NCBI RefSeq assembly: GCF_988243305.1 | Contig: NZ_OZ547136.1 | DNA length: 64,000 nt | Direction: 5' to 3' (one strand) | Shown here: piece by piece, positions 41,449-56,538 of the stretch | Layout: every line of letters begins with the position of its first letter | How positions within the stretch are numbered: the first letter of the stretch is position 1 | Made by a program: the position numbers and the translations under genes | The notes under the pieces: generated by a model | The model's database searches: none | What the model saw: the letters and a program-made list of their open reading frames with translations, nothing else | Told to the model about the DNA's origin: nothing

Positions 41449-42819
41449 TTACTTATTCAGTAACTCAAGGATAAGTTTTGTCTTTTCTTCCATCAGCGGC
41501 ACATCACCGCGCGATTCCACATTCAGGCGCACCACCGGTTCGGTGTTGGAGGAGCGCAGGTTAAAGCGCCAGTCGGCAAAGGTCATGCTGATGCCATCGG
41601 TACGATCCACCGCCAGCGCCTCGCGGCTAAAGTGCTGTTCGACGCGGTTAATCGCCTCAACGGGTTGCGCCAGTTTGCTGTTGATCTCACCGCTTGCCGG
41701 AAACGCTGCCATCCGGTCGCGCACCAGTTCGCCCAGCGTTTTTCCTTTCAGGCACACCAGTTCGGCTACCAGCAGCCACGGGATCATGCCGCTGTCGCAG
41801 TAAGCGAAATCACGGAAGTAATGGTGAGCGCTCATTTCGCCACCATAGATGGCGTCTTCCTTGCGCATACGTTCTTTAATAAAGGCGTGTCCGGTTTTCG
41901 ACATCACCGGAGTGCCGCCCGCGGCGGTCACCACATCAACGGTATTCCAGGAGAGACGTGGATCGTGGATGATCTTCGCGCCGGGATTTTTTTCGAGGAA
42001 CGCTTCTGCCAGCAGGCCGACAATGTAATAGCCCTCGATAAACTGCCCTTTTTCGTCAAACAGGAAGCAGCGGTCAAAATCGCCATCAAAGGCAATGCCC
42101 ATATCCGCTCCGTGTTTGATGACCGCATTGCGGGTGTCGTCGCGACATTCCGGCAGCAGCGGATTAGGAATACCGTTGGGGAAATTGCCGTCCGGCGTGT
42201 TGTGTACTTTGATTAATTCCACCGGTGCGCCGAGGGCTTTAAATCGGGCTTCAATGGCGTCCACCACCGGACCCGCCGCGCCGTTCCCGGAGTTAATCAC
42301 CAGCTTGAGCGACGTGAGGTTTTTGACGTTGATATAACCGAACAGGTGCTCAACGTAAGCGTCACGCAGATTGATTTGTTGATAGCGACCGCGTTTGGTT
42401 TCATCGACGGGAGGAAAGTCGTTGGCTTCTGCCAGACGCTGGACATCGCGTAGTCCGGTATCACCGCTGATCGGGCGAGCCCCCTCGCGAACCAGCTTCA
42501 TGCCGTTATAATCCATCGGATTATGGCTGGCGGTGACTTCAATGCCGCCATCCACGCCGAGATGGAACGTGGCGAAATAGATTTCTTCGGTGCCGGACAT
42601 GCCAATATCCAGCACATCGACGCCCGCATCCTGTAAACCTTTCGCCAGCGCCAGTTTTAAGGTTTCGCTGGTGAGGCGGGCATCACCGCCTAACACAATG
42701 GTTTTCGGTTTGAGAAATTCGCCATAGGCGCGACCAATGCGCCACGCAATATCTTCATTCAGTTCTTCGCCTAATTTCCCGCGAATATCATAGGCTTTAA
42801 AGCAGGTTAATTTTTTCAT
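41449..42819 (-). CDS. manB: phosphomannomutase (O-antigen cluster copy)
   Basis: 456-aa product [33 protein letters not shown]...; phosphohexomutase TASHNP active-site motif. Confidence 0.93.
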
Positions 42820-42843
42820 ATAAAAACCTTACCAATAATAAAA

Positions 42844-43602
42844 TTATTTATGCGCAAATAATTGCATTAGTTTTGATATTTTTCTGATAATGATAGCAAT
42901 TTTCCAATTTACATTATGGTTTTTCATAACTTCTACAATTTCCTTTGTACTTGATATCGCGTTATCAATTCTGGTACTTTCCCCACCCAATCTCATCTTT
43001 ACAAATACTTGAGGAACATAAATAACTTTAATATCATCACGTTTCAAAATCCTGACCATCTGATCATAGTCTGCAGCAATCCTATAGGATAAATCAAAAT
43101 ATCCATCGTCTTTATATAATTCCCTCCTCATATAGAAAGATGGATGCGGTGGTGCCCAGCCTAATGATAGCTTAGAACGTTTAAAAGGACCACTACGCCA
43201 GTATCGTTTGATTATATCAATTTGGTTTTTTTCGAAAAAAACCAAATCACCGTATACAACATCCGCTTTTGTCTCATGGAAACGGCTTACAATAGTTTCA
43301 ATAATATCAGGTCTTGCTAAAAGGTCATCAGAATGAACGAATCCAATAATATCTCCCGTAGATAAATTTATACCTTTATTTAAAGCATCATAGATACCGT
43401 TATCGCTTTCTGATAGACATTTGGTTACTCTTGTTGATACTTCGTTAATTAGTTTTAACGTATTATCTGTAGAACCACCATCAATAATTATATACTCTAT
43501 ATCTTTATAGGTTTGCAACTCTATTGACTCTAAAGTATCCCTTAAAGTCTTTTCACTATTATAAGTCACTGTAATAATACTGACTTTCATTTTAACATCC
43601 AA
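42844..43602 (-). CDS. family 2 glycosyltransferase (O-antigen)
   Basis: N-terminal VSIITVTYNSEKTL and DGGSTD motifs typical of GT2; 252 aa; low-GC sequence. Confidence 0.8.
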   Translation of the reverse strand: MDVKMKVSIITVTYNSEKTLRDTLESIELQTYKDIEYIIIDGGSTDNTLKLINEVSTRVTKCLSESDNGIYDALNKGINLSTGDIIGFVHSDDLLARPDIIETIVSRFHETKADVVYGDLVFFEKNQIDIIKRYWRSGPFKRSKLSLGWAPPHPSFYMRRELYKDDGYFDLSYRIAADYDQMVRILKRDDIKVIYVPQVFVKMRLGGESTRIDNAISSTKEIVEVMKNHNVNWKIAIIIRKISKLMQLFAHK

Positions 43603-43673
43603 TAATAATCATAATTAAATAACGTCAGTACCGCATTACGAATAATAATGTTGCATTAGTATCCAGCATCATT

Positions 43674-45074
43674 TTAGATTCTAACAACATCATCTTCATC
43701 CAAGTAAACACCTGAACGTACCTCAATAATCTCCAAAGGGATCTTTCCTGGATTCTCAATAAAATGAGGTACACCTATTGGTATATAAGTTGATTCATTT
43801 TCAGAAACAAGAAATATTTCATCTTCATAATGGACTTTTGCTGTTCCAGAAACAACAATCCAATGCTCAGTACGATGGTAATGAATCTGTTTAGCAGTTT
43901 TATGTCCAGGATGAATAACGACATGTTTAACCTCAAATCGAGATCCTTCCGCTATAGAGTCATGACTGCCCCATGGCCTAAATATTTCACGATGCTGCAG
44001 ATATTCCGTACGGTTATTAACTTTAAGTTTTTCTACAATATTTTTTACCTGTTGAACTTTATCTTTATGCGCAACGAGAATAGCATCTTTAGTTTCAACA
44101 ACTACTAAATCTTTAACTCCTACTACACCAATTAATCTATGTTGTGAGTAAAGATAACTGTCAGAAGAATCATGAATTAATACATCTCCTCTAATTGCAT
44201 TTCCACTTTTATCTTTTCTGCTAATTTCCCATAATGCAGACCAAGAACCAACATCGCTCCAGTGGGCATTTAATGGAACTACCACAGCCTCTGTTGTTTT
44301 CTCCATAACAGCGTAATCAATGGATTCTTCAGGGCAACAACTAAATGAGTCATTATCTATACGGATAAAATCAAGATCTTGTGTAGAGGACTTCAATGCT
44401 TGTTGGCATATTTTTAGTATGTCTGGTCTAAATTTATTCAACTCATCAATAAACACAGAAGCCCTAAACATGAATATTCCACTATTCCAAAGATAATCTC
44501 CATCTTCAAGATATTTTTTGGCCACATCTAGCTCAGGCTTTTCAACAAAAGCAGAAACTTTAAAACCATATTCATTTAAATTTTCTCCGGTTTTTATATA
44601 GCCATATCCAGTTTCGGGTTTGGTTGGCACAATACCAAAAGTTACCAGCTTACCTTCCTCTGCAAATTCTTTTGCAGCCAATATTGACGATATAAAGCGC
44701 TTTTGGTCTTGTATTTCATGATCGGCTGCTAGTACAAGCAGTATTGGATCCTCACCTGATGAAATCGCTTTAAGAGCAGCAAGCGCAACTGCGGGGGCAG
44801 TATTACGACCTACCGGCTCTAGTAAAATGCCACTATTCGCTAAATTTACATTACGCATCTGTTCTGCAACGATAAAACGATGAACTTCATTACAAATAAC
44901 CAGAGCAGGACGATGTTCAACCCCTTCAAGCCTTCTTAAGGTCTCTTGTAGCATAGTCAAACGACTAGTTAACGACAGGAATTGCTTCGGATATAGTGTT
45001 CGAGAAAGTGGCCACAATCTAGTTCCAGAACCACCGGCCATTACAACAGGAAGTAGCATATAAATAACCTTCAC
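43674..45074 (-). CDS. manC: mannose-1-phosphate guanylyltransferase
   Basis: N-terminal nucleotidyltransferase domain (LPVVMAGGSGTRLWPLSR) and C-terminal cupin domain; start overlaps the gmm stop (ATGA). Confidence 0.93.
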   Translation of the reverse strand: MKVIYMLLPVVMAGGSGTRLWPLSRTLYPKQFLSLTSRLTMLQETLRRLEGVEHRPALVICNEVHRFIVAEQMRNVNLANSGILLEPVGRNTAPAVALAALKAISSGEDPILLVLAADHEIQDQKRFISSILAAKEFAEEGKLVTFGIVPTKPETGYGYIKTGENLNEYGFKVSAFVEKPELDVAKKYLEDGDYLWNSGIFMFRASVFIDELNKFRPDILKICQQALKSSTQDLDFIRIDNDSFSCCPEESIDYAVMEKTTEAVVVPLNAHWSDVGSWSALWEISRKDKSGNAIRGDVLIHDSSDSYLYSQHRLIGVVGVKDLVVVETKDAILVAHKDKVQQVKNIVEKLKVNNRTEYLQHREIFRPWGSHDSIAEGSRFEVKHVVIHPGHKTAKQIHYHRTEHWIVVSGTAKVHYEDEIFLVSENESTYIPIGVPHFIENPGKIPLEIIEVRSGVYLDEDDVVRI

Positions 45075-45526
45075 TTAAAATAATTTTTTGTGTACTGATG
45101 AACTGAGGAATTAGCTAACAATTCGGCTATATCGAACCAATTGTAAGTACTATGTTGTAGTGTTGGATAGTTAATTTGATGTGGCATCAAACTAATCTCA
45201 TATCCGTGTACGACATAATGAGTTGAAAAACAAGTCCCAGAAAAATTGTCGCTGTAGAAATGTTCATAAATCCCAAGAAATTTTGCTTCATTAATGCTAA
45301 TTTGAACACCCAATTCTTCAAAAGTAACTCTTTTGAATGCGTTCTCGAAAGACTCATCTTTAAGAATCCGTCCCCCCGGCACAAACCAATAATTTTGTGC
45401 TGGACGATTAAGGCGCTGACCAAGCAGCGCCTTACCATCTTCGTTTCTTATAATAAGGTCTATCGAGATTAGTGGAGTATGTTCAACTATTGATTTAAAT
45501 AACTCTGTTTCTAATCTCTTGTTCAA
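45071..45526 (-). CDS. gmm: GDP-mannose mannosyl hydrolase (NUDIX)
   Basis: NUDIX box GGRILKDESFENAFKRVTFEELG; 151 aa. Confidence 0.88.
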   Translation of the reverse strand: MNKRLETELFKSIVEHTPLISIDLIIRNEDGKALLGQRLNRPAQNYWFVPGGRILKDESFENAFKRVTFEELGVQISINEAKFLGIYEHFYSDNFSGTCFSTHYVVHGYEISLMPHQINYPTLQHSTYNWFDIAELLANSSVHQYTKNYFK

Positions 45527-45528
45527 TA

Positions 45529-46494
45529 TTAACTCCTAAATGAGTCAAGATTATTTATAAACCATTTATATGTTAATTCTAGTCCTTGTTTTAAATTATA
45601 ACGATATTTCCAGCCCAAATTCTCAAGGCGTGTAACATCCATAAGTTTACGAGGCGAACCATCTGGTTTTGTTATATCAAAAACAATTTTTCCATCATAG
45701 CCAACAACTAAAGCCATTGTTTCTGCCATTTCACGTATGGAACAATCAACACCAGTACCTACGTTAATATGAGATAACATTGGTTGAGTATTTTTTTTAT
45801 AAATTTCATCATCAAGCTCCATCACATATACTGATGCAGCTGCCATATCATCAACATATAAAAACTCGCGTTTTGGAGTTCCCGTTCCCCAGACAACCAC
45901 TTCATTTAAACCAAGTTCCTTTGCTTCATGAAAACGCCGCATAAGCGCTGGAATTACATGTGAGTTATTGGGATGAAAATTATCATTCATACCATATAAG
46001 TTAGTAGGCATTACACTGCGATAATCACATCCATATTGGCGATTATAAGATTCACATAGCTTTATACCTGCTATTTTGGAAATAGCATAAGGCTCATTAG
46101 TAGGCTCAAGAGTTCCCGTCAAAAGTGCAGATTCTTTCATTGGCTGTTCTGCAAACTTTGGATAGATACAACTTGACCCTAAGAATAATAGTTTCTTTAT
46201 GCCCGCTTTATAAGATGAGTGAATAATATTGCTTTCAATGAGAAGGTTCTGATAAATAAATTCAGCTGGAAAAGTGTTATTAGCATGAATTCCTCCTACT
46301 TTTGCTGCTGCAAGGTAAACCTGATCTATTCTCTCTTGCTCAAAAAAACATTCAACATCCTTTTGAACTGTCAAATCGAGTTCTTTGTGAGTTTTGACAA
46401 TTAACTCAACATCATTACGTGCTAATAATTGACGACAAATAGCAGAACCAACCATCCCACGATGTCCAGCCACAAAAATTCGCTTCTTGGTCAT
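45529..46494 (-). CDS. fcl: GDP-L-fucose synthase
   Basis: 321-aa product [23 protein letters not shown]... Confidence 0.93.
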
Positions 46495-46497
46495 ACT

Positions 46498-47619
46498 TTA
46501 ACGCTCCAAAGAGACTGCCACGTCAAAACCATGGCTTTTAAGAAGTGCATGCTGTTTAGCTTTTTCTAAATCACTAGCCACCATTTCTGCACACATTTCT
46601 TCAACTGTAATCTCTGGCTCCCAACCCAAGACATTTTTTGCTTTTGTTGGATCACCAAGAAGAGTTTCAACTTCTGCTGGTCGAAAATAACGAGGGTCAA
46701 CGCGAACAATAACATCACCAATATTAACACCAACGGCGCAATCTGATGTTTTATTTACAACCATTGCAACCTCATCAACACCAGTACCGGAAAACTCAAG
46801 TTCAAGTCCAACTTCTTTAGCAGACATACGGACAAATTCACGTACAGATATTTGTTTGCCAGTGGCAATAACAAAGTCTTCTGGCTGGTCTTGTTGAAGC
46901 ATCATCCATTGCATACGAACATAATCTTTCGCATGCCCCCAATCACGTAAAGAATCCATGTTGCCAAGATATAAGCATTTTTCTATTCCCTGCGAAATAT
47001 TAGCTATAGCACGTGTGATTTTACGTGTTACAAACGTTTCCCCACGACGTGGGGATTCATGATTGAACAAAATACCGTTGCATGCATACATTCCATAAGA
47101 CTCACGATAGTTTACAGTGATCCAATATGCATACAGTTTAGCTACGGCATAAGGTGAACGAGGATAGAACGGCGTTGCCTCTTTTTGTGGAACTTCCTGA
47201 ACTAATCCATACAATTCAGAGGTTGACGCCTGATAAAATCGGGTTTTTTTTTCTAATCCCAAAAAACGAATAGCTTCCAATAATCGTAAAGTACCTATAG
47301 CATCAACATCAGCTGTATATTCTGGGGATTCGAAGGAAACAGCTACGTGACTCATTGCTCCGAGGTTGTAAACTTCATCAGGTTGAACTTCAGATAATAT
47401 ACGAGTCAAATTAGAAGTATCTGTTAAGTCACCATAATGAAGGTGTAATTTTAAATTAATATTATGGGGATCTTGGTATATATGGTCAATACGTCCAGTA
47501 TTAAAAATAGAAGAACGTCGTTTTATTCCATGAACCTCGTAACCTTTATTTAGTAGAAACTCTGCCAAATATGAACCATCTTGACCAGTAATGCCAGTAA
47601 TTAATGCTTTCTTTGTCAT
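46498..47619 (-). CDS. gmd: GDP-mannose 4,6-dehydratase
   Basis: 373-aa product [37 protein letters not shown]... Confidence 0.95.
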
Positions 47620-47629
47620 AAAATTATTC

Positions 47630-48664
47630 CTACAGTAGTTTCTTGTAAATATCGATAGTTTTGTCAGTACATTTTTTCCAAGAAAAACGTTGTGCTTGAG
47701 ATAAACCTTTCTTAATAATTTGATTTCGATTTCTATTTATAAATGATATACCATCAATAAGGTTGCTTATACTTAACTCATCCATCAAATAACCGGCGTC
47801 ACCTGCAACCTCTGGTATTGAGGAGTGATTATACGCAATGAATGGGCATCCTGCCCTCATTGCTTCTAAAAGAGGAATACCAAATCCTTCATAACTTGAC
47901 GGATAAATAAGAGAATGAGCTTGATTAAATTTTAGATTCAACTCTTGCTCAGTTAAATATGGATAATGAATATATCGATATGGTATATATTTATCAAGTA
48001 AAAATTTCTCAGCCTTTCCCAAAGGGCCTCCACCTACAATATATAGTTTGAACCCCTCTAATTTGTTTATTGCTTCAACTGCAAGTTGAAAGTTTTTATA
48101 TGCTTTTCTCGAACCAATAAAAAGCATGAAATTATCATCATCGTTATAATTAACGTTTTTTAATTCATAAAAATTATCAGACACCCCATTGTGAATGATT
48201 TCGATTTTACTTTCAGGTACTGGACAATACCTCAACAAATCATTGGCAGTATTTTCTGAAATGCAAATTATTTTATCACTGTTTTTTATAGCATTGTACT
48301 TCTGATGACAATGAACGTATTTACGTAAACCTGACATATATTTTTCATATGTAAAGTCATGTACTGTTGTTATGTTTTTATTTTTTTTGCCCTTACTAAA
48401 TCTATAATAACTAGAATGTAATAGAGAGTTTTCAGGAATATCAACAGCTCGATACCTTTCAAGAAAGCGAGGATATAGATTAATATAACGTCCAGGTTGT
48501 CGCACATCTTCACTTATAAATTGACAGCCTGTATTCTCATAGTTTAATATCGTATATTCAATATTTGTGGCTTTTATCGCTTTTATTATTTGATTATAAT
48601 AAACAGAAATGCCACCGTATGACTGGAGATTATATATAATACCATCCAAATATAACATAGGCAC
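47630..48664 (-). CDS. GT-B fold glycosyltransferase (GT1/GT4-like; O-antigen)
   Basis: C-terminal EX7E-type motif region [23 protein letters not shown]; 344 aa. Confidence 0.8.
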
Positions 48665-48673
48665 CTTTTATAT

Positions 48674-49687
48674 TTAATTGTATCCATCAGGATTTAGCGT
48701 ATGCCATTTCCACGCAGAAGAAAGCATTTCGGTCAAATCTCGCCTAGCCTTCCAGTCCAGTTCTTTTTCAGCTTTGGAAACATCCGCCCAACATTCTGCA
48801 ACATCGCCGCTTCGGTTAGGGCCAAAACTATAATTAATATTTTTCCCAATAATTGATTGAAATGTTTTTATTACTTCTAATACAGAATATCCTCTACCCG
48901 TACCTAAGTTATATATTTTATAATTTCCTCCTTTGCCAAACATTTTAAATGCTGAAATATGCCCCTCAGCTAAATCATTTACATGAATATAATCTCTGAT
49001 ACCAGTCCCATCAGGCGTTGGATAGTCATGACCATAAATAGTAAGCGCAGGTAATTTACCTAAAGCAACATTCATCATATATGGAACTAAGTTAGCAGGA
49101 GTACCTCTGGGATTTTCACCTATTAACCCAGACTCATGCGCCCCCACTGGATTAAAATATCGCAAAATAATCACATCTAATTTAGGGTTTGCCAGAGAAG
49201 CATCTTTTAATATAACCTCGGAGTAATATTTACTGGTCCCGTATGGATTCGTTGTTTCACCTATACGACATTTTTCATTGATAGGTATCGTTTCTGGAAG
49301 ACCGTACACCGTAGCAGATGAGCTAAAGATAATTTTATTTACATGAAAGATCTTCATTAACTCTAACAAATTTAAAAGCCCAACAATATTATTCATATAA
49401 TAACGTATAGGACTTTGAACTGATTCTGAGACAGACTTAAGGCCTGCAAAATGTAATACTTTAGAGAATGTGTGATTCGTGAATATAGTCTTTAATTCTT
49501 TTTTGTCCAATAAATCTACCTTATATGCTCTGATTTTCTTACCACTAAGCTTTGAAATGACTTTGATGATATCTTCTGTAGAATTAGAAAAATTATCTAT
49601 GATGACAACGTCTTCATTCTGCTCCAATAATGACAGAACAGTATGGGACCCAATATATCCAGCTCCACCCGTAACTAATATTGTCAT
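48674..49687 (-). CDS. UDP-hexose 4-epimerase (GalE family)
   Basis: N-terminal ILVTGGAGYIGSH Rossmann motif and a YGTSK catalytic motif; 337 aa; low GC, so cluster-specific rather than housekeeping galE. Confidence 0.82.
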   Translation of the reverse strand: MTILVTGGAGYIGSHTVLSLLEQNEDVVIIDNFSNSTEDIIKVISKLSGKKIRAYKVDLLDKKELKTIFTNHTFSKVLHFAGLKSVSESVQSPIRYYMNNIVGLLNLLELMKIFHVNKIIFSSSATVYGLPETIPINEKCRIGETTNPYGTSKYYSEVILKDASLANPKLDVIILRYFNPVGAHESGLIGENPRGTPANLVPYMMNVALGKLPALTIYGHDYPTPDGTGIRDYIHVNDLAEGHISAFKMFGKGGNYKIYNLGTGRGYSVLEVIKTFQSIIGKNINYSFGPNRSGDVAECWADVSKAEKELDWKARRDLTEMLSSAWKWHTLNPDGYN

Positions 49688-49696
49688 AAAAACACC

Positions 49697-51019
49697 TTAT
49701 TTGAATTTAAAAAAAACTATTTGCATCGATAATCTCAAGCATATGTATGCCATAAAGAACATACCTAATTCAAATATCATAGAAGAAAACTCTGAGCGTT
49801 GGAAATTGATAGATTGGGAAAGAAAAACAAGATAAAGAAAATAGTTGCTCCCAATTAACCTTTCCATTATATATGAATAACCACATAAAATGGCAGGAAA
49901 TATAATTACACCATAATAATTATAATTAATAAAAGCTTCTGTAAAAGGAGTAAATGCATATCCCATCATAAACTCTTGACTTGGCAAATAAACTTCCTTT
50001 GCAAATTGAATAGCTAATGTGTCTGGCTTTAATCCCATAAATAATTCTTTTGGTATAAAGTTTACAATGAACTGAAGATAGGATATACCAAAAAATTGAG
50101 TCTGATAATGTATCGAAGAATAATATTGAAGTGTAGATATAGGATAAATAAATTCACCCAAAGCATTCAATAATCTTATGCTTGATTCGACATTATAATC
50201 TGAACGATATATCCCAAAAAGTATAATCGTTGATACAAATAGAATACTGAACAACGCTACTTTTAATGGTATCTTAAATTTAGCTTTATAAAGTGATAGC
50301 AATACAGCCATAATAAAAGATAAAGCAATTTCTCGTCTTGAACCTACCAGCATTAAAGTATAAAAATATAAAAGCACAGGTATGCTGTATATTACGAAAC
50401 TATAATTTGTGAGACTTTTTTTTACTATCTTTAAATCAAGTAAAATCCAAAAATAAGCAATAACCACATATTTCAGATACCATCCACTTTGACTTACCGA
50501 ATTAATTAACTCTAGGCGAGTACTTTCGCCCAAAGCATTCAGAGAAAGATTTCTTGATTGATATAGAAAAAATAATGATATTAACCATGCTATGCATGAT
50601 GGAATAAATAGATTATAGTTATTGTCATAGTTATATTGTTTGTTTAAAAGAAATATATTGATACCGTGAGGCCTAATCAAACTAATCGATGCAACTATAC
50701 ACCAAACAGCAACACAATATAAGAATGAAGTGTTGATTATATTATTTTCAACATTAAATACATTAACACCAAAAAAATAATACAACAAAAAAGACACAAA
50801 AAAATAAAAAGGCGATAATATTATAAATATTCCATCAAACCATACCCACATTCGATTATATACAAAAAAAAGAATTGCAATTGTAAATATTACAGATAAA
50901 AACCAAATTAGGATAGCATCAATTTCAACTTTGACAGAAGTGCTCAATACAGCAATCATTATCAACCCAATAAAGCCATAAAATTGAGCCAATACCAGTT
51001 TGTATTGTTTATAAATCAT
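49697..51019 (-). CDS. wzy: O-antigen polymerase
   Basis: 440-aa highly hydrophobic polytopic protein with very low GC, positioned among the glycosyltransferases. Confidence 0.75.
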   Translation of the reverse strand: MIYKQYKLVLAQFYGFIGLIMIAVLSTSVKVEIDAILIWFLSVIFTIAILFFVYNRMWVWFDGIFIILSPFYFFVSFLLYYFFGVNVFNVENNIINTSFLYCVAVWCIVASISLIRPHGINIFLLNKQYNYDNNYNLFIPSCIAWLISLFFLYQSRNLSLNALGESTRLELINSVSQSGWYLKYVVIAYFWILLDLKIVKKSLTNYSFVIYSIPVLLYFYTLMLVGSRREIALSFIMAVLLSLYKAKFKIPLKVALFSILFVSTIILFGIYRSDYNVESSIRLLNALGEFIYPISTLQYYSSIHYQTQFFGISYLQFIVNFIPKELFMGLKPDTLAIQFAKEVYLPSQEFMMGYAFTPFTEAFINYNYYGVIIFPAILCGYSYIMERLIGSNYFLYLVFLSQSINFQRSEFSSMIFELGMFFMAYICLRLSMQIVFFKFK

Positions 51020-51854
51020 ATTTTAACAATCCCGTCCAGAAACCGATTAATCTGTACATATATAATTTTTTTTGTTTTTTTAAAACGATACCAAAAAATG
51101 ATTTTACTGTGATCCTGAAAATTTCCAATAGTAATAAATAACGAGATTTCACTAAATACTTCTTTATCACGACACCATATCCAACTGCATATTTTCTGTA
51201 TTTTTCTGGTATCCCTTCACAATATAAATCATTATCGTGATAAACTCCAAATATAGGTTGAAAACATACTCTAAACCCAAGAGATTTCAGCCGAAAAAAT
51301 AACTCCGTTTCTTCGGATCCACCGAATAAAGTACCAACACCTAACCTTTCATCAAAATATATATTATCGAGTTTATGAGTAAAAATAAAAGTACCCACAC
51401 TTAGTGACGATTTAATTATTTGATTATAACCCATTTCCTTTTTAGTTTTAGGATAAACTCTATTGGCATAAGATTTCATTGTTTGAAAATCTAATACAGG
51501 AACTGAAAGAACGGTTTCTTTTTTGATATTTGATTGAATCACCTTCTCAAAAAAATCAGGAGCATAAAAAGCATCATCATCACAGAACCCAATAACATTA
51601 CCACTGCATAGTTTAAGCCCTTGATTACGAGCAGTTGAAAGTGGTACTTTATTTGATTTAACCAACTTGTATTTTATATTTTTTGCGTGTTTTAAAAATA
51701 ATTGCTCAATTATGATATCATCAGTCTGATCAATAAATATAATTTCTAGGTTTTTGTACGTACTGCTAGCTATGCTATTTAGCAGTCGTTCAATTTCTTT
51801 ATCCCTTCCACCTTGAGTTGTGCCTATCAAACTAATTTTATAAAAGTTATTCAT
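51009..51854 (-). CDS. family 2 glycosyltransferase (O-antigen)
   Basis: GT2-like N-terminal domain with a DDD motif (GFCDDDAFY); 281 aa. Confidence 0.75.
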   Translation of the reverse strand: MNNFYKISLIGTTQGGRDKEIERLLNSIASSTYKNLEIIFIDQTDDIIIEQLFLKHAKNIKYKLVKSNKVPLSTARNQGLKLCSGNVIGFCDDDAFYAPDFFEKVIQSNIKKETVLSVPVLDFQTMKSYANRVYPKTKKEMGYNQIIKSSLSVGTFIFTHKLDNIYFDERLGVGTLFGGSEETELFFRLKSLGFRVCFQPIFGVYHDNDLYCEGIPEKYRKYAVGYGVVIKKYLVKSRYLLLLEIFRITVKSFFGIVLKKQKKLYMYRLIGFWTGLLKYDL

Positions 51855-51855
51855 A

Positions 51856-52776
51856 TTAATATCCTTTTTTTAAGATTGAATTAATCTTTATTTTACAATA
51901 ATAAGCAAATTTTCTAAGAAAAACACCATTTATATATTTAATCTTTACTCCTAACTTAGAAAAAATAATAAAATACACCTTAAAATAATAACAAATAGCA
52001 TTAAGAAAACGATGACTTGATTGCGGAAACAAAACCATCCCTAGCTCATCTTTATCGAGAATAATCCCCTGTTTTTTTAAATTACCAATGGCAATAGATA
52101 TGTGAATATCTGCTTGTATATGCTTTTTTATATTCGATATTTGATTTCCGTGATTTCGATAATAAAGCAAGGGTATATTTATATTACAGAATTTTCCGTA
52201 GTTTGCTAATCTACTCCAAAACTCATAATCTTCAGCATATTGGTAGCGTGGCTTATAATATAGGCATTCTTTTTTTATAATGCTGCTTCTCATCATTACA
52301 GTTGGATGAGCAAAACAACTGCCCACCAACAATCCTATTTTACAGGCTTCGTCTGAGTTAGGCATTTTTATAATTTTTCCGCTATTAACAGCTGACTCAA
52401 AAACTTTGATATTAGTTCCACAACACGCTATTTTTTGATCTGCATCCATTATTTCAACTTGTAATCTCAACCTTTCTCTGTGAGCAATATCATCAGCATC
52501 CATTCTAGCAATATACACTCCCGTAGCCATGTCTAATAATTCATTTAAAGTAGCTACTATCCCTTTATTTTCTCTATGCTTAATTTTGAATATCGCGGGA
52601 TATTTATTTTTATATTCATCAAGTATCTTTTGTGTACCATCCTGCGAGCCATCATTGATGATGATAATTTCAAATATTTTATATGTTTGTTCCAATATAC
52701 TGTCAATGCATGCGCCTAAGTATTTTTCAGCATTATATACCGGTATTATAACGGATACTTTGTTTTTATTAATCAT
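51856..52776 (-). CDS. family 2 glycosyltransferase (O-antigen)
   Basis: N-terminus KVSVIIPVYNAEKYLGACIDSILEQTY and DGSQDGT, a classic GT2 signature; 306 aa. Confidence 0.85.
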   Translation of the reverse strand: MINKNKVSVIIPVYNAEKYLGACIDSILEQTYKIFEIIIINDGSQDGTQKILDEYKNKYPAIFKIKHRENKGIVATLNELLDMATGVYIARMDADDIAHRERLRLQVEIMDADQKIACCGTNIKVFESAVNSGKIIKMPNSDEACKIGLLVGSCFAHPTVMMRSSIIKKECLYYKPRYQYAEDYEFWSRLANYGKFCNINIPLLYYRNHGNQISNIKKHIQADIHISIAIGNLKKQGIILDKDELGMVLFPQSSHRFLNAICYYFKVYFIIFSKLGVKIKYINGVFLRKFAYYCKIKINSILKKGY

Positions 52777-52782
52777 AATATA

Positions 52783-54054
52783 TCATACTTTGTTTTTATT
52801 AAGCAGATAACAGATCGTTACTATTAAGGAGAACATATATAATGCTTGAGATATTATATACGCTTTAAAAACATAAGAAATTTGAGCATTTTCGACGTAG
52901 CATAACGAATACTTACTTAATATACAATATACAGACCATTGTAACACTTCTAACACTATATATTCTTTTACGAATGCTTTGCTAATCAGCAAATAACCAA
53001 GCACCCATGCAATTATCTTAAAAAAATCTCCAATTAGTTGATAAACTATAACATCAACAATAGGAACGAACTCGTGTGTAAATAGAATATTTACTATCAA
53101 ACCGCGAAATGTATACATCAAGACTGAAGATATACAAACTAACGGAACCAAATACAAATAACAAACTTTTATTTCATTAAGCAATTCTGAACGGTTAGAT
53201 GCACTTGAAAACCTTGGAAAGAAATATACCCCCAATGTAGTCGTAATTAACATCAAATAGACTGAACTTATTCTATTAACAGCATCCCACAACCCAGCAT
53301 ACTCAATATTTATTGATGTTATGATTTCATTTCTCACATATAACGTACTAACTGGCACTAATATAGCTGAAGTGACTGTCATTAAAGAAAAAATTATGAT
53401 CCGTTTTAATATTGAAATATCAATTCGATTGCAATTATTAACATAGTATTCTCTTAAATATTTTTTTGAGTAAAAAAAAGTCACAAAAAACAATATAGCT
53501 TGATTTGAAACTACAGCAATCAATGCTCCTCTCATACCAAAAGAGATTGTCAATATAAAGGCGTATATTGCAGATATTAAACTCGATATGATATTAATCC
53601 ATATATAATTTTTAATAAATGACAATCCATTTAACATAGAAAGAATTATATTATTCCATGCATATAAAATAACACTCCCTCCCAAGAAATAAATTGCGAT
53701 GCTTACTTCATCATTAGAATTGAAAAATTGTTCGATAATTATATTTTTAAAGATAATTATGATAACAGCGGTTATAAATCCCATTATAGTAGACAAATAA
53801 ATTGCATTAATCCAAAAACTCCAGATTTTTTCCTTATTACTATTCTTATACTCTGACGTATACTTAACAATACTCGTTGAAATAGCTTGTGATGGCGCAA
53901 CCATAGCTATATTAAGGATATTTTGGATTTGGCCAATAAGTGCATATCCAGACGTACCTAAATATATTGCGAATACTTTATTAAGTCCAAGTAGAGTTGC
54001 TATTTTGACAAATACAGAAAGGCCATTAAGAATAAAGACATTATATACTTTCAC
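52783..54054 (-). CDS. wzx: O-antigen flippase
   Basis: 423-aa polytopic protein of the polysaccharide-transport (MOP/PST) type, first gene of the low-GC block. Confidence 0.8.
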   Translation of the reverse strand: MKVYNVFILNGLSVFVKIATLLGLNKVFAIYLGTSGYALIGQIQNILNIAMVAPSQAISTSIVKYTSEYKNSNKEKIWSFWINAIYLSTIMGFITAVIIIIFKNIIIEQFFNSNDEVSIAIYFLGGSVILYAWNNIILSMLNGLSFIKNYIWINIISSLISAIYAFILTISFGMRGALIAVVSNQAILFFVTFFYSKKYLREYYVNNCNRIDISILKRIIIFSLMTVTSAILVPVSTLYVRNEIITSINIEYAGLWDAVNRISSVYLMLITTTLGVYFFPRFSSASNRSELLNEIKVCYLYLVPLVCISSVLMYTFRGLIVNILFTHEFVPIVDVIVYQLIGDFFKIIAWVLGYLLISKAFVKEYIVLEVLQWSVYCILSKYSLCYVENAQISYVFKAYIISQALYMFSLIVTICYLLNKNKV

Positions 54055-54122
54055 AGTTCACCTAACATATTAAGTAGGTTATGATAACAAAACTCATATT
54101 TAATTATACCATAAATATAAAC

Positions 54123-54134
54123 CACGCTACCGCC
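54123..54134 (-). promoter_or_regulatory. ops element (RfaH-dependent antitermination) within the JUMPstart region upstream of the O-antigen operon
   Basis: Top strand cacgctaccgcc equals GGCGGTAGCGTG on the transcribed strand, in the galF-wzx intergenic region. Confidence 0.8.
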
Positions 54135-54407
54135 CCTGGCTATACAGCTACCAGAGCACTGCGTGTGTGTCTACAATGTAACGAGCGTTTCATGCTCGCA
54201 ATAAACAAAAAACCAAAAGCTAAATTATCTTACTAATCAGCTCTGAAAACAAGGAAATGTGTAAAAAAAGTCCTATTGCTGACTTGTTATTATCCCGAAT
54301 ATTTATAAATCAATAATAGCAGGAAGACTCGCAACAAGTTACTTTGCCTGCTAATCTTCACAACTATTACAGTCTTTTCGCATCTGTTGCATCCGATTCG
54401 ATTTTCA

Positions 54408-55301
54408 TTATTCCCTTAACAGCTTCTCAATCCCTTTACGGAACTTCGCCCCTTCTTTTAGGTTACGCAGTCCATACTTCACAAACGCTTGCATATAACC
54501 CATTTTTTTACCGCAGTCGTAGCTGTCACCGGTCATCAGCATGGCATCAACAGACTGTTTTTTCGCCAGTTCGGCAATAGCATCAGTCAGTTGGATACGT
54601 CCCCATGCACCTGGCTGAGTGCGTTCCAGTTCCGGCCAAATATCGGCAGAAAGCACATAACGGCCCACGGCCATGATGTCTGAGTCCAGCGTCTGCGGCT
54701 GATCCGGTTTTTCGATAAATTCAACAATGCGGCTGACTTTACCTTCGCGATCCAGCGGTTCTTTGGTCTGGATGACGGAGTATTCAGAGAGGTCACCCGG
54801 CATACGTTTTGCCAGCACCTGGCTACGGCCCGTTTCATTGAAGCGTGCAATCATGGCAGCAAGGTTGTAGCGTAGCGGGTCGGCGCTGGCGTCGTCGATC
54901 ACAACGTCTGGCAGCACCACGACAAATGGATTGTCACCAATGGCGGGTCGTGCACACAAAATGGAATGACCTAAACCTAAAGGTTCGCCCTGACGCACGT
55001 TCATAATAGTCACGCCCGGCGGGCAGATAGATTGCACTTCCGCCAGTAGTTGACGCTTCACGCGCTGCTCAAGGAGAGATTCTAATTCATAAGAGGTGTC
55101 GAAGTGGTTTTCGACCGCGTTCTTGGACGCGTGAGTTACCAGGAGGATTTCTTTGATCCCTGCAGCCACAATCTCGTCAACAATGTACTGAATCATTGGC
55201 TTGTCGACGATCGGTAGCATCTCTTTGGGAATCGCCTTAGTGGCAGGCAACATATGCATCCCAAGACCCGCTACCGGTATAACTGCTTTTAAATTCGTCA
55301 T
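54408..55301 (-). CDS. galF: UTP-glucose-1-phosphate uridylyltransferase paralogue GalF
   Basis: Start at [43 protein letters not shown]... Confidence 0.95.
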
Positions 55302-55542
55302 CATTTTCCTACCTCTAAGTGGCTGATAGTGCGTAAATTATGCCATAGGTTAGCCAAACGGTATGGCTATATACCAAAGCTTAGTTCCGCATAACTTTGA
55401 TTAAACCTTACGATAACACTACACACCATCAGCATCTGGGTTACTCGGATTACTCGGAAATCCACATACTGATAATTTAATCAGTACCTCTTTCCGAATA
55501 ATCGTAGTCCAACCTGGTCCTTTTTTCTCTGACTCGTCTGCA

Positions 55543-56538
55543 TTACTCAGAAACAAACGTTATGTCGTCTTTTTTGGCATGAACGAATTCATACTGCAGA
55601 GTTCGATCCAGACCTTGCGACAGCGTATACGGTGCCACAAAACCTGAAGAATGCACTTTCGTTGCGTCAAACTGTGTTGTTGCGCAGAATTTTTTCACGC
55701 GCACTGAGCTGACAGCGTATTTTTTGCCCGTAATTTTGCTCAGGATATCAAAACAATATCCACCCAGCATTCCTAGTGGGTAAGGCAAGTGCATAGAAGG
55801 GATCTTTTTGTTCAGGCTTTGTTCAACTTCAGCAACCAACTGGTTCATGTTCAGGTCTGGCTTATCAACGTAGTTATAAACCTCATAACCTGCGGCAACA
55901 TTCTTCAGTTTGTACTTGATAAACTCAACAATGTTTCCAACATAAGCCATGGACTTATAGTTAGTTCCTGCACCCACCATCATAAACTTGCCGCCAGCGA
56001 TCTGTTTCAGCAAGTTATAGACGTTACCGCGGTTGCGTTCACCGAAGATAACGGTAGGACGGATGATGGTTAATGAACGTTCTGTTGGTGCTTTGTTATA
56101 CCATTCACGCAGCACTTCCTCTGCCTGCCACTTACTTTTGCCGTAGTGGTTGAAAGGGTCGTGTGGATGGTTTTCGTCAGGGTTATGTTTGTTCAAACCA
56201 TAAACAGCAACGGAACTGGTAAAGATGATATTTTTAACGCCATTTTTTTCCATGGCCGCCAGCACATTGCGGGTACCCTGAACGTTGACATCATAATAGA
56301 GAGAAGTAGGGCTGACGTCATCGCGGTGTTCCGCTGCCAGTAGTACAACAGTGTCAAAACCAACTAATGCCTGGTCGAGTGCCTGTTGATCGCGAACATC
56401 GCCAATCTGTGTGATTTCTGGATAAAAGTGGCTCTGCTGTTTGTCCAGGTTCTTGATATTAAAGTCAGCAATTGCCGTTTCAAGTAGTCGGGTTCCTACG
56501 AATCCGGAAGCTCCTATGAGCAAAACGTTATCGTTCAT
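55543..56538 (-). CDS. gne: UDP-N-acetylglucosamine 4-epimerase-type SDR protein (Z3206/Gne-like)
   Basis: 331-aa product MNDNVLLIGASGFVGTRLLE...; sits between galF and wcaM, as the Z3206-type gne does in several serogroups. Confidence 0.8.
   Translation of the reverse strand: MNDNVLLIGASGFVGTRLLETAIADFNIKNLDKQQSHFYPEITQIGDVRDQQALDQALVGFDTVVLLAAEHRDDVSPTSLYYDVNVQGTRNVLAAMEKNGVKNIIFTSSVAVYGLNKHNPDENHPHDPFNHYGKSKWQAEEVLREWYNKAPTERSLTIIRPTVIFGERNRGNVYNLLKQIAGGKFMMVGAGTNYKSMAYVGNIVEFIKYKLKNVAAGYEVYNYVDKPDLNMNQLVAEVEQSLNKKIPSMHLPYPLGMLGGYCFDILSKITGKKYAVSSVRVKKFCATTQFDATKVHSSGFVAPYTLSQGLDRTLQYEFVHAKKDDITFVSE

Follow-up and report, generated by a model that had tools for sequence, protein, structure and literature searches.

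The gnu and gne epimerase gene pair of an Escherichia coli O125 O-antigen locus

Organization of the locus

The window, that is, the whole stretch of 64,000 nucleotides that was analysed (NCBI RefSeq assembly GCF_988243305.1, contig NZ_OZ547136.1), contains the O-antigen gene cluster of E. coli O125. Its wzx and wzy genes belong to the O125 family, O125 is the assigned serogroup, and the cluster is matched at 99.8–99.9% by seven genomes. The element at 54123..54161 is presumed, by its consensus, to be JUMPstart, and we take the RfaH-dependent O-antigen operon to start there. The relevant features are as follows.

55543..56538, minus strand: gnu (Z3206-type), assigned as Und-PP-GlcNAc 4-epimerase, 331 aa, 44.7% GC (330/331 to O157:H7 WP_000999466.1)
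54408..55304, minus strand: galF, conserved gene marking the O-antigen locus at its upstream edge (TIGR01105, 688 bits, cut-off 659; RefSeq annotation)
54123..54161, minus strand: presumed JUMPstart element with ops motif GGCGGTAGC at 54126-54134 (pattern match and sequence reading)
52783..54054, minus strand: wzx, O125 family flippase (ORF and annotation)
51856..52776, minus strand: wetD, GT2 glycosyltransferase, proposed Gal transferase using UDP-Gal (ORF, annotation; donor per PMC9680116)
51009..51854, minus strand: wetE, GT2 glycosyltransferase, proposed beta-GalNAc transferase (ORF, annotation; donor per PMC9680116)
49697..51019, minus strand: wzy, O125 family polymerase (ORF, annotation, profile search)
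48674..49687, minus strand: gne, in-cluster GalE-family gene, putative UDP-hexose/UDP-HexNAc 4-epimerase, 337 aa, 35.4% GC (ORF, TIGR01179, residues)
47630..48664, minus strand: wdaF, GT4 glycosyltransferase, proposed retaining Man transferase (annotation; PMC9680116)
43674..47619, minus strand: manC-gmm-fcl-gmd, module for GDP-Man and GDP-L-Fuc synthesis (ORFs, annotation)
42844..43602, minus strand: wdaG, GT2 glycosyltransferase, proposed Fuc transferase acting on Und-PP-GalNAc, the product of WecA and Gnu (annotation; PMC9680116)

In the operon order wzx, GT2, GT2, wzy, gne, the inner epimerase gene (gne) comes fifth, about 4.7 kb downstream of galF. The outer one, gnu, is flanked by wcaM and galF and is not part of the operon, the JUMPstart/ops element being downstream of galF. 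A preliminary description of this DNA had placed two epimerase genes at 48674-49687 and 55543-56538, where ORFs of 337 and 331 aa are indeed found on the minus strand; its account of the former as low-GC and GalE-family (35.4% GC, 430.5 bits with TIGR01179) and of the latter as a Z3206-type SDR beyond galF (330/331 to the O157:H7 protein, between wcaM and galF) is likewise borne out. The two genes were also said to flank the cluster boundary, but gne is internal rather than at the boundary. As that description had proposed, the genes encode two different kinds of 4-epimerase: the proteins are about 25% identical and fall into separate clades, and they therefore do not share the single specificity clade that it had named as the result that would overturn it.

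Neither an initial transferase gene nor a gnaA-like gene (WbpO-type UDP-GlcNAc dehydrogenase) is annotated in the O125 cluster, and no candidate for an alternative source of UDP-GalNAc was found elsewhere in the O125 locus. Around gnu and galF, scans did not clearly exceed shuffled sequences, with 11 promoter-like sites (6.1 ± 2.0 in shuffles) and 2 terminator-like sites (2.3 ± 1.6 in shuffles). Upstream of gnu, 56671-56644 resembles a promoter at 10 of 12 positions, as a consensus match only. Another ops-like GGCGGTAGC match, at 20988 inside the yeeA-equivalent region, was treated as chance because at least two matches occurred in 6 of 100 shuffles. Colinearity of the left part of the window with the O125 strain NCTC8623 (pdu operon there) was considered and discarded, as positions 1-17490 gave no BLAST match to NCTC8623; strain AH25 matched this part only partly.

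The in-cluster epimerase and its gatekeeper residue

The gne product passes both the TIGR01179 galE model (430.5 bits, cut-off 262.3) and NF007956 (414.4 bits, cut-off 394), and the GC content of its gene resembles that of the remainder of the low-GC cluster. RefSeq and TIGR01179 both label it GalE. A GGAGYIG Rossmann motif (GxxGxxG) occupies residues 7-13; the catalytic residues S124, Y149 and K153 and the sugar-binding residues K84 and N179 are all present; N199 is found at the C2 pocket; and the gatekeeper is C299, which corresponds to Tyr299 in E. coli and Cys307 in the human enzyme. The same residues (K84/S124/Y149/K153/N179/N199/C299) recur in human GALE and Bifidobacterium longum GalE, two bifunctional enzymes of group 2. 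Model score, motif, and catalytic and sugar-binding residues place the protein in the GalE/Gne clade A (UDP-hexose 4-epimerase, SDR1E). Its match to the GnaB clade B (UDP-GlcNAcA 4-epimerase; WbpP/WbgU/TviC) is poor, with 81.8 bits for the TviC model (cut-off 760) and E = 5.5e-23 for WbpP, against 1e-117 for GalE-type structures. As GalE and Gne are mixed together in clade A (Cunneen et al. 2013, PMC3682973), the substrate cannot be read from phylogeny alone.

The specificity residues have been described as Lys85/Asn200/Cys299, with a small Cys or Ser giving a large C5 pocket (PMC6668579), and the Y299C and C307Y switch experiments have been summarised (PMC5349592). The O125 protein combines a small gatekeeper with Asn at the C2 pocket, and the O unit contains a non-initiating GalNAc, as expected of a group 2 enzyme. 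Because a small gatekeeper such as Cys299 is typical of UDP-GlcNAc-capable enzymes, the inner gene is predicted to be Gne, the supplier of UDP-GalNAc; the enzyme can probably make UDP-Gal too, a bifunctionality predicted from its residues and context. Cys or Ser was found at the gatekeeper position in 11 of the 11 non-housekeeping E. coli GalE paralogues sampled (from O125, O11, an O6-like strain, O166, O23, O103, O128, O86, O102, O22 and a capsule locus), whereas the housekeeping GalE has Tyr. O125 Gne is only 51–57% identical to the other sampled in-cluster Gne proteins of E. coli, is 48% identical to both K-12 GalE and human GALE, and is the same protein in three O125 genomes.

The RefSeq name 'UDP-glucose 4-epimerase GalE', the passed TIGR01179 galE model and the one Gal in the O125 O unit would all fit an inner enzyme that makes UDP-Gal and nothing else, UDP-GalNAc coming from another source. 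Yet the gatekeeper is Cys299 where the monofunctional E. coli GalE has Tyr, O125 genomes already possess a housekeeping GalE, and a group 2 enzyme would yield UDP-Gal as well. Moreover, the O unit includes a non-initiating GalNAc although the locus offers no other UDP-GalNAc candidate, and Z3206 is reported to be inactive on UDP-GlcNAc (PMC3682973). We therefore regard a UDP-Gal-only enzyme as very unlikely and retain the assignment as Gne.

The Gne assignment can be extended further: the enzyme may be fully bifunctional, supplying UDP-GalNAc and UDP-Gal from the RfaH-controlled operon, and its gene a distinct allele derived from a donor along with the low-GC cluster. We give this fuller reading somewhat less than an even chance. 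The allele presumably entered with the low-GC cluster from some donor. If full bifunctionality holds, O-antigen synthesis would be independent of gal-operon regulation and of the housekeeping GalE, which would be a small refinement of the known scheme and no new mechanism.

The outer epimerase and precursor supply

The outer ORF matches Pfam Epimerase at 105 bits and encodes an extended SDR; its residues 9-15 read GASGFVG, and S109, Y132 and K136 are present. It is identical to O157:H7 Z3206 (WP_000999466.1) at 330 of 331 residues, the sole difference being A59V, and its current RefSeq name is Und-PP-GlcNAc 4-epimerase. It scores 70 bits on TIGR01179, far under the cut-off of 262.3, and shows no match to the TviC model that would point to GnaB clade B. 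As no NCBIfam HMM reaches its cut-off for this protein, membership of Gnu clade D rests on the near identity to Z3206, with which the wcaM-galF position, the initiating GalNAc and the lack of an initial transferase gene in the cluster agree. The gene is present at 95–99% DNA identity in 1,314 of 5,426 complete E. coli genomes (24%), and among the three O125 genomes compared Gnu varies by at most two residues.

The O157 enzyme is reported to turn Und-PP-GlcNAc into Und-PP-GalNAc and to show no activity on UDP-GlcNAc (Rush et al. 2010, cited through PMC3682973); by analogy, window Gnu, with its single A59V exchange, is taken to act on the lipid-linked substrate and not on a UDP-sugar. The earlier 'Gne' view, current before 2010, held Z3206-type proteins to be UDP-GlcNAc 4-epimerases, with WecA transferring UDP-GalNAc to undecaprenyl phosphate, so that both genes would provide overlapping soluble precursors. 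This view goes back to how the O157 gene was first annotated (as told in PMC3682973) and accords with an SDR of weak GalE similarity (70 bits, TIGR01179), but it is largely refuted already and highly improbable here: besides the O157 assay, made on an enzyme one residue away from that of the window, gnu tracks GalNAc-first O units across about 115 serogroups and Yersinia pseudotuberculosis (PMC3682973). Normal O antigen in O86 depends on both genes, each knockout altering the LPS (PMC3682973), and gnu and gne are thus not redundant there. The remaining idea, that one of the genes is a passenger and dispensable (gnu, for instance, carried by recombination without an O125 role), could draw on the position of gnu outside the operon, its presence in 24% of E. 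coli genomes and about 10 cases across serogroups of unpredicted gnu or gne (PMC3682973), but is scarcely credible given that both ORFs are intact, that Gne is 100% conserved and Gnu at most two residues different in three O125 genomes, and that both functions are required for the O125 structure.

In the O125ac and O125ab repeat units, GalNAc occurs both at the reducing end and internally, and Gal is a side-chain residue; the initiating residue is alpha-GalNAc and the internal one beta-GalNAc (PMC9680116). The authors attributed these residues to gnu and gne (Furevi 2022, PMC9680116), and O125 is listed as requiring both genes (Cunneen et al. 2013, Table S2, PMC3682973), with the gne column for O125 displaced by one cell in the machine-read table. 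The composition of the repeat unit fits the prediction from the gene pair. The comparison with the O unit that had been proposed for when the serogroup was assigned is thereby in place. The preliminary description calls for correction in two respects. The O unit does need more than one epimerised precursor, but the pair is not simply UDP-Gal and UDP-GalNAc and should rather be given as UDP-GalNAc plus Und-PP-GalNAc; and the substrate of Z3206, there called debated, was settled between 2010 and 2013.

In the proposed pathway, WecA, encoded elsewhere in the genome, would make Und-PP-GlcNAc, and Gnu, as an NAD-dependent SDR, would epimerise its C4, yielding Und-PP-GalNAc, whose sugar is the initiating residue of each unit. 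The operon glycosyltransferases would next add Fuc, Man, the second GalNAc and the side-chain Gal. A non-initiating GalNAc in the O unit requires UDP-GalNAc, and this soluble donor would be supplied by Gne; as the proposed beta-GalNAc transferase, WetE would thus be its consumer. Gne would interconvert UDP-GlcNAc/UDP-GalNAc and UDP-Glc/UDP-Gal, and should accept both substrate pairs because the small Cys299 leaves room for the N-acetyl group. UDP-Gal would also be available from the gal operon's housekeeping GalE (Tyr299), so the side-chain Gal can derive from the housekeeping GalE, from Gne or from both. The O125 strain NCTC8623 carries galETKM as a separate operon, and the GalE encoded there is identical to K-12 GalE. 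The housekeeping galE reference was taken from MG1655; NZ_CM135829.1, labelled 'DH5alpha', was rejected for this purpose, its galE lying in an O-antigen cluster (cpsB, GT4, galE, GT).

Taken together, the region is very likely an E. coli O125 O-antigen locus with the standard gnu and gne pair, Gnu providing lipid-linked and Gne soluble GalNAc. Gene identities, key residues, genomic positions and distribution come from this analysis, and O-unit structure and Z3206 activity from the literature; the substrate range of O125 Gne and the pairings of glycosyltransferases with donors are what we infer, the latter following a published proposal rather than experiments (PMC9680116).

Relation to known epimerases

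The gene pair is real but ordinary, as the same arrangement has been published for O86 (Cunneen 2013, PMC3682973) and for O125 itself (Furevi 2022, PMC9680116). For annotation, a 'GalE' in an O-antigen cluster is to be read as Gne if it has a small gatekeeper and the O unit a non-initiating GalNAc, and GalNAc as first sugar is indicated by a Z3206-type gene upstream of galF. These gatekeeper and gnu rules are already established (Rush 2010, Cunneen 2013, Liu 2020, Furevi 2022). They aid the prediction of O-unit chemistry from sequence and the engineering of glycoconjugate vaccines; beyond correct annotation, the importance of the present pair is small.

In O86, gne1 (gnu) likewise lies between wcaM and galF and gne2 (gne) is a GalE-family gene in the operon (PMC3682973), a layout also seen in the O86 locus examined here (L015/L019). 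As in O125, the O86 unit contains GalNAc twice, once as the initiating residue, and fucose genes are present too. The Gnu proteins of O86 and the window differ at 2 of 331 residues, whereas the Gne proteins are only 54.6% identical, with Ser as gatekeeper in O86 and Cys in O125, and gne is the first gene after galF in O86 but the fifth in O125. An S306Y mutant of O86:B7 Gne has reportedly been made, a number that does not fit the aligned 339-aa O86 protein. O157:H7 shares the wcaM-galF location of gnu and 330 of 331 Gnu residues with the window; unlike O125, it has only one GalNAc and lacks a gne within the cluster.

Human GALE (PDB 1EK6) and B. longum GalE (PDB 6K0G/H/I) are group 2 enzymes, 48–52% identical to O125 Gne, whose function is predicted, and all three have catalytic and sugar-pocket residues in common, including the Lys/Asn/Cys triad. 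Their roles lie in the Leloir pathway and in LNB/GNB catabolism, whereas O125 Gne is predicted to supply O-antigen precursors. By contrast, the E. coli housekeeping GalE (PDB 1XEL and others) belongs to group 1: it has the fold and catalytic residues of O125 Gne and is 48% identical to it, but carries Tyr299 in place of Cys299, and its gene in the gal operon has a GC content of 54%, compared with 35% for the gene inside the O-antigen operon.

Position and identity of the two epimerase genes

The preliminary description placed two epimerase genes at the edge of the O-antigen cluster, and both open reading frames lie exactly where it put them:

48674-49687, minus strand: inner epimerase (337 aa, 35.4% GC)
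55543-56538, minus strand: outer epimerase (331 aa, 44.7% GC)

GC content is 28–39% from gnd to galF, compared with 48% for the whole window. Window 42800-54400 has 99.8–99.9% matches in seven complete E. coli genomes, among them NCTC8623 and one O125ac:H10 strain, in which wzx and wzy carry O125-family annotations. Along the minus strand, wcaM, gnu and galF are followed by an element at 54123-54161, 3' of galF, which fits the JUMPstart/ops consensus, then by wzx, GT2, GT2, wzy, gne and GT4, by gmd, fcl, gmm, manC, GT2 and manB, and finally by gnd, ugd and wzzB. From this order, the inner epimerase is gene 5 of an RfaH-type operon, and the outer one lies upstream of galF, outside the operon.

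The outer protein is an extended SDR (GASGFVG at residues 9–15; S109, Y132, K136) with only ~25% identity to the inner protein or any GalE. It is identical at 330 of 331 positions (sole change A59V) to O157:H7 WP_000999466.1, named GlcNAc-diphospho-undecaprenol 4-epimerase in RefSeq, and its clade has been named Gnu (PMC3682973). Rush et al., as cited by Cunneen et al. (PMC3682973), reported that the O157 enzyme turns Und-PP-GlcNAc into Und-PP-GalNAc and does not act on UDP-GlcNAc; the substrate of Z3206-type enzymes, initially noted as debated, is now settled. The gene occurs in 1,314 of 5,426 E. coli genomes at 95–99% DNA identity, lying between wcaM and galF in every locus inspected (O125, O157, O11 and O86). 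The PDB holds no close solved structure for Gnu (best match E = 2.6e-17). A clade B (GnaB) identity was rejected for both genes.

Predicted specificity of the inner enzyme

The inner protein scores 430.5 bits on TIGR01179, the GalE equivalog model (cut-off 262.3), and shares 48% identity with both K-12 GalE and human GALE (the human sequence used is 348/348 identical to PDB 1EK5); among proteins of solved structure it is closest to B. longum GalE (PDB 6K0G/6K0I). Every catalytic and sugar-binding residue is retained (K84, S124, Y149, K153, N179 and N199), and Cys299 aligns with E. coli Tyr299 and human Cys307. This gatekeeper position is regarded in the literature as the chief determinant of UDP-GlcNAc/GalNAc acceptance: with a small Cys or Ser there the pocket is large and the enzyme belongs to group 2 or group 3, with a bulky Tyr, Leu or Phe it is limited to UDP-Glc/Gal, and single substitutions switch the behaviour of the E. 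coli, human and Neisseria enzymes (PMC6668579; PMC5349592). The K84/N199/C299 triad is that of human GALE and B. longum GalE, both experimentally bifunctional, and on this basis the O125 inner protein is predicted to be a group 2 enzyme, Gne in O-antigen nomenclature.

The gatekeeper was surveyed in eleven E. coli GalE-family genes outside the gal operon, one from a capsule locus and ten from O-antigen clusters (O125, O11, an O6-like strain, O166, O23, O103, O128, O86, O102 and O22). It is Cys in nine and Ser in two, with Tyr found only in housekeeping GalE; for O6, O23, O103, O166, O128, O86 and O102, the literature lists GalNAc requiring gne. O125 Gne is only 51–57% identical to the other surveyed paralogues and 100% conserved among the three O125 genomes compared. 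K-12 galE DNA is present in 5,391 of 5,426 complete genomes, and in NCTC8623 the housekeeping gene was found directly, within galETKM, encoding a protein identical to K-12 GalE, Tyr299 included. An O125 strain therefore carries three 4-epimerases, not two.

Fit to the O125ac repeat unit

The O125ac unit is ->4)[beta-D-Gal-(1->3)]-beta-D-GalNAc-(1->2)-alpha-D-Man-(1->3)-alpha-L-Fuc-(1->3)-alpha-D-GalNAc-(1-> (PMC9680116), and thus requires Und-PP-GalNAc, GDP-Fuc, GDP-Man, UDP-GalNAc and UDP-Gal. WecA and Gnu would provide Und-PP-GalNAc, the in-cluster manB, manC, gmd and fcl would yield GDP-Fuc and GDP-Man, and Gne would form UDP-GalNAc, with UDP-Gal probably drawn from housekeeping GalE, Gne or both. 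The cluster holds four glycosyltransferases, matching the four linkages. The earlier suggestion of two epimerases serving different precursors survives as to distinct roles, but the predicted pair is UDP-GalNAc and Und-PP-GalNAc rather than UDP-Gal and UDP-GalNAc.

The two-epimerase arrangement is already described, for the O125 serogroup itself included. The structure paper calls its two epimerases 'presumably gnu and gne' (PMC9680116), and Table S2 of Cunneen et al. gives O125 two main-chain GalNAc residues with both genes needed, its gne entry reading 'present and correct' with slight uncertainty from a column shifted by one cell (PMC3682973). O125 matches the O86 gne1/gne2 case of 2013, in which each knockout alters LPS (PMC3682973), and the O86 locus examined here has the same gnu-galF-gne layout.

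Variation in the cluster and its flanks

The O125 cluster is a mosaic. Its 3' module GT2-manC-gmm-fcl-gmd (window 42800-47622) is 98.8% identical to O11 clusters such as that of MS 198-1 and is also matched in 66 genomes at 95–99%, the similarity stopping exactly at the gmd start; O11 and O125 share an identical gene order and have divergent 5' halves (Gne 51% identical). The O-antigen manB (41449-42819; RefSeq name colanic-acid CpsG) has 54% GC, unlike the adjoining low-GC cluster, and a 63-bp stretch of the colanic acid region at the window end (63938-64000) is 97% identical to it, consistent with recombination between two phosphomannomutase copies.

C 236-04A (O125ac:H10) carries an IS5-family element (ISKpn26 transposase; L009:14767-15958, equivalent to window 54057-54065) downstream of JUMPstart/ops, inserted a few bases 5' of the start of wzx, and is labelled O125ac despite this insertion. 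In NCTC8623, a poly-T run close to the 3' end of wetE, the second GT2 gene, is one T longer (L001:14267; window 51065), which alters the final ~17 residues of the proposed GalNAc transferase; this may reflect either a homopolymer error of long-read sequencing or genuine slip-strand variation. In the O86 strain WP2-W18-ESBL-10, wzy is a frameshifted pseudogene (L019:5495-6893), and galF of MS 198-1 (O11) is split by an IS4 insertion (L004:22587-24918).

The left flank (window 1-20100) is a CP4-44-like island, in place of which NCTC8623 carries a pdu microcompartment operon:

2922-4475: DUF3987 protein
6680-9955: Ag43/AIDA-type autotransporter
10070-12592: 840-aa ORF, no Pfam match
12668-13123: IrmA-like protein
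13535-14353: DUF932 protein

An IS110-family insertion at ~18782-20061 is absent from NCTC8623 and AH25. Finally, NZ_CM135829.1, labelled DH5alpha, contains an O-antigen-type cluster with cpsB, GT4, a Cys-gatekeeper galE (this segment also matched at ~64% in ATCC 25922 and Nissle) and further glycosyltransferases; a K-12 derivative would not be expected to carry such a cluster, which suggests mislabelling or contamination of the record.
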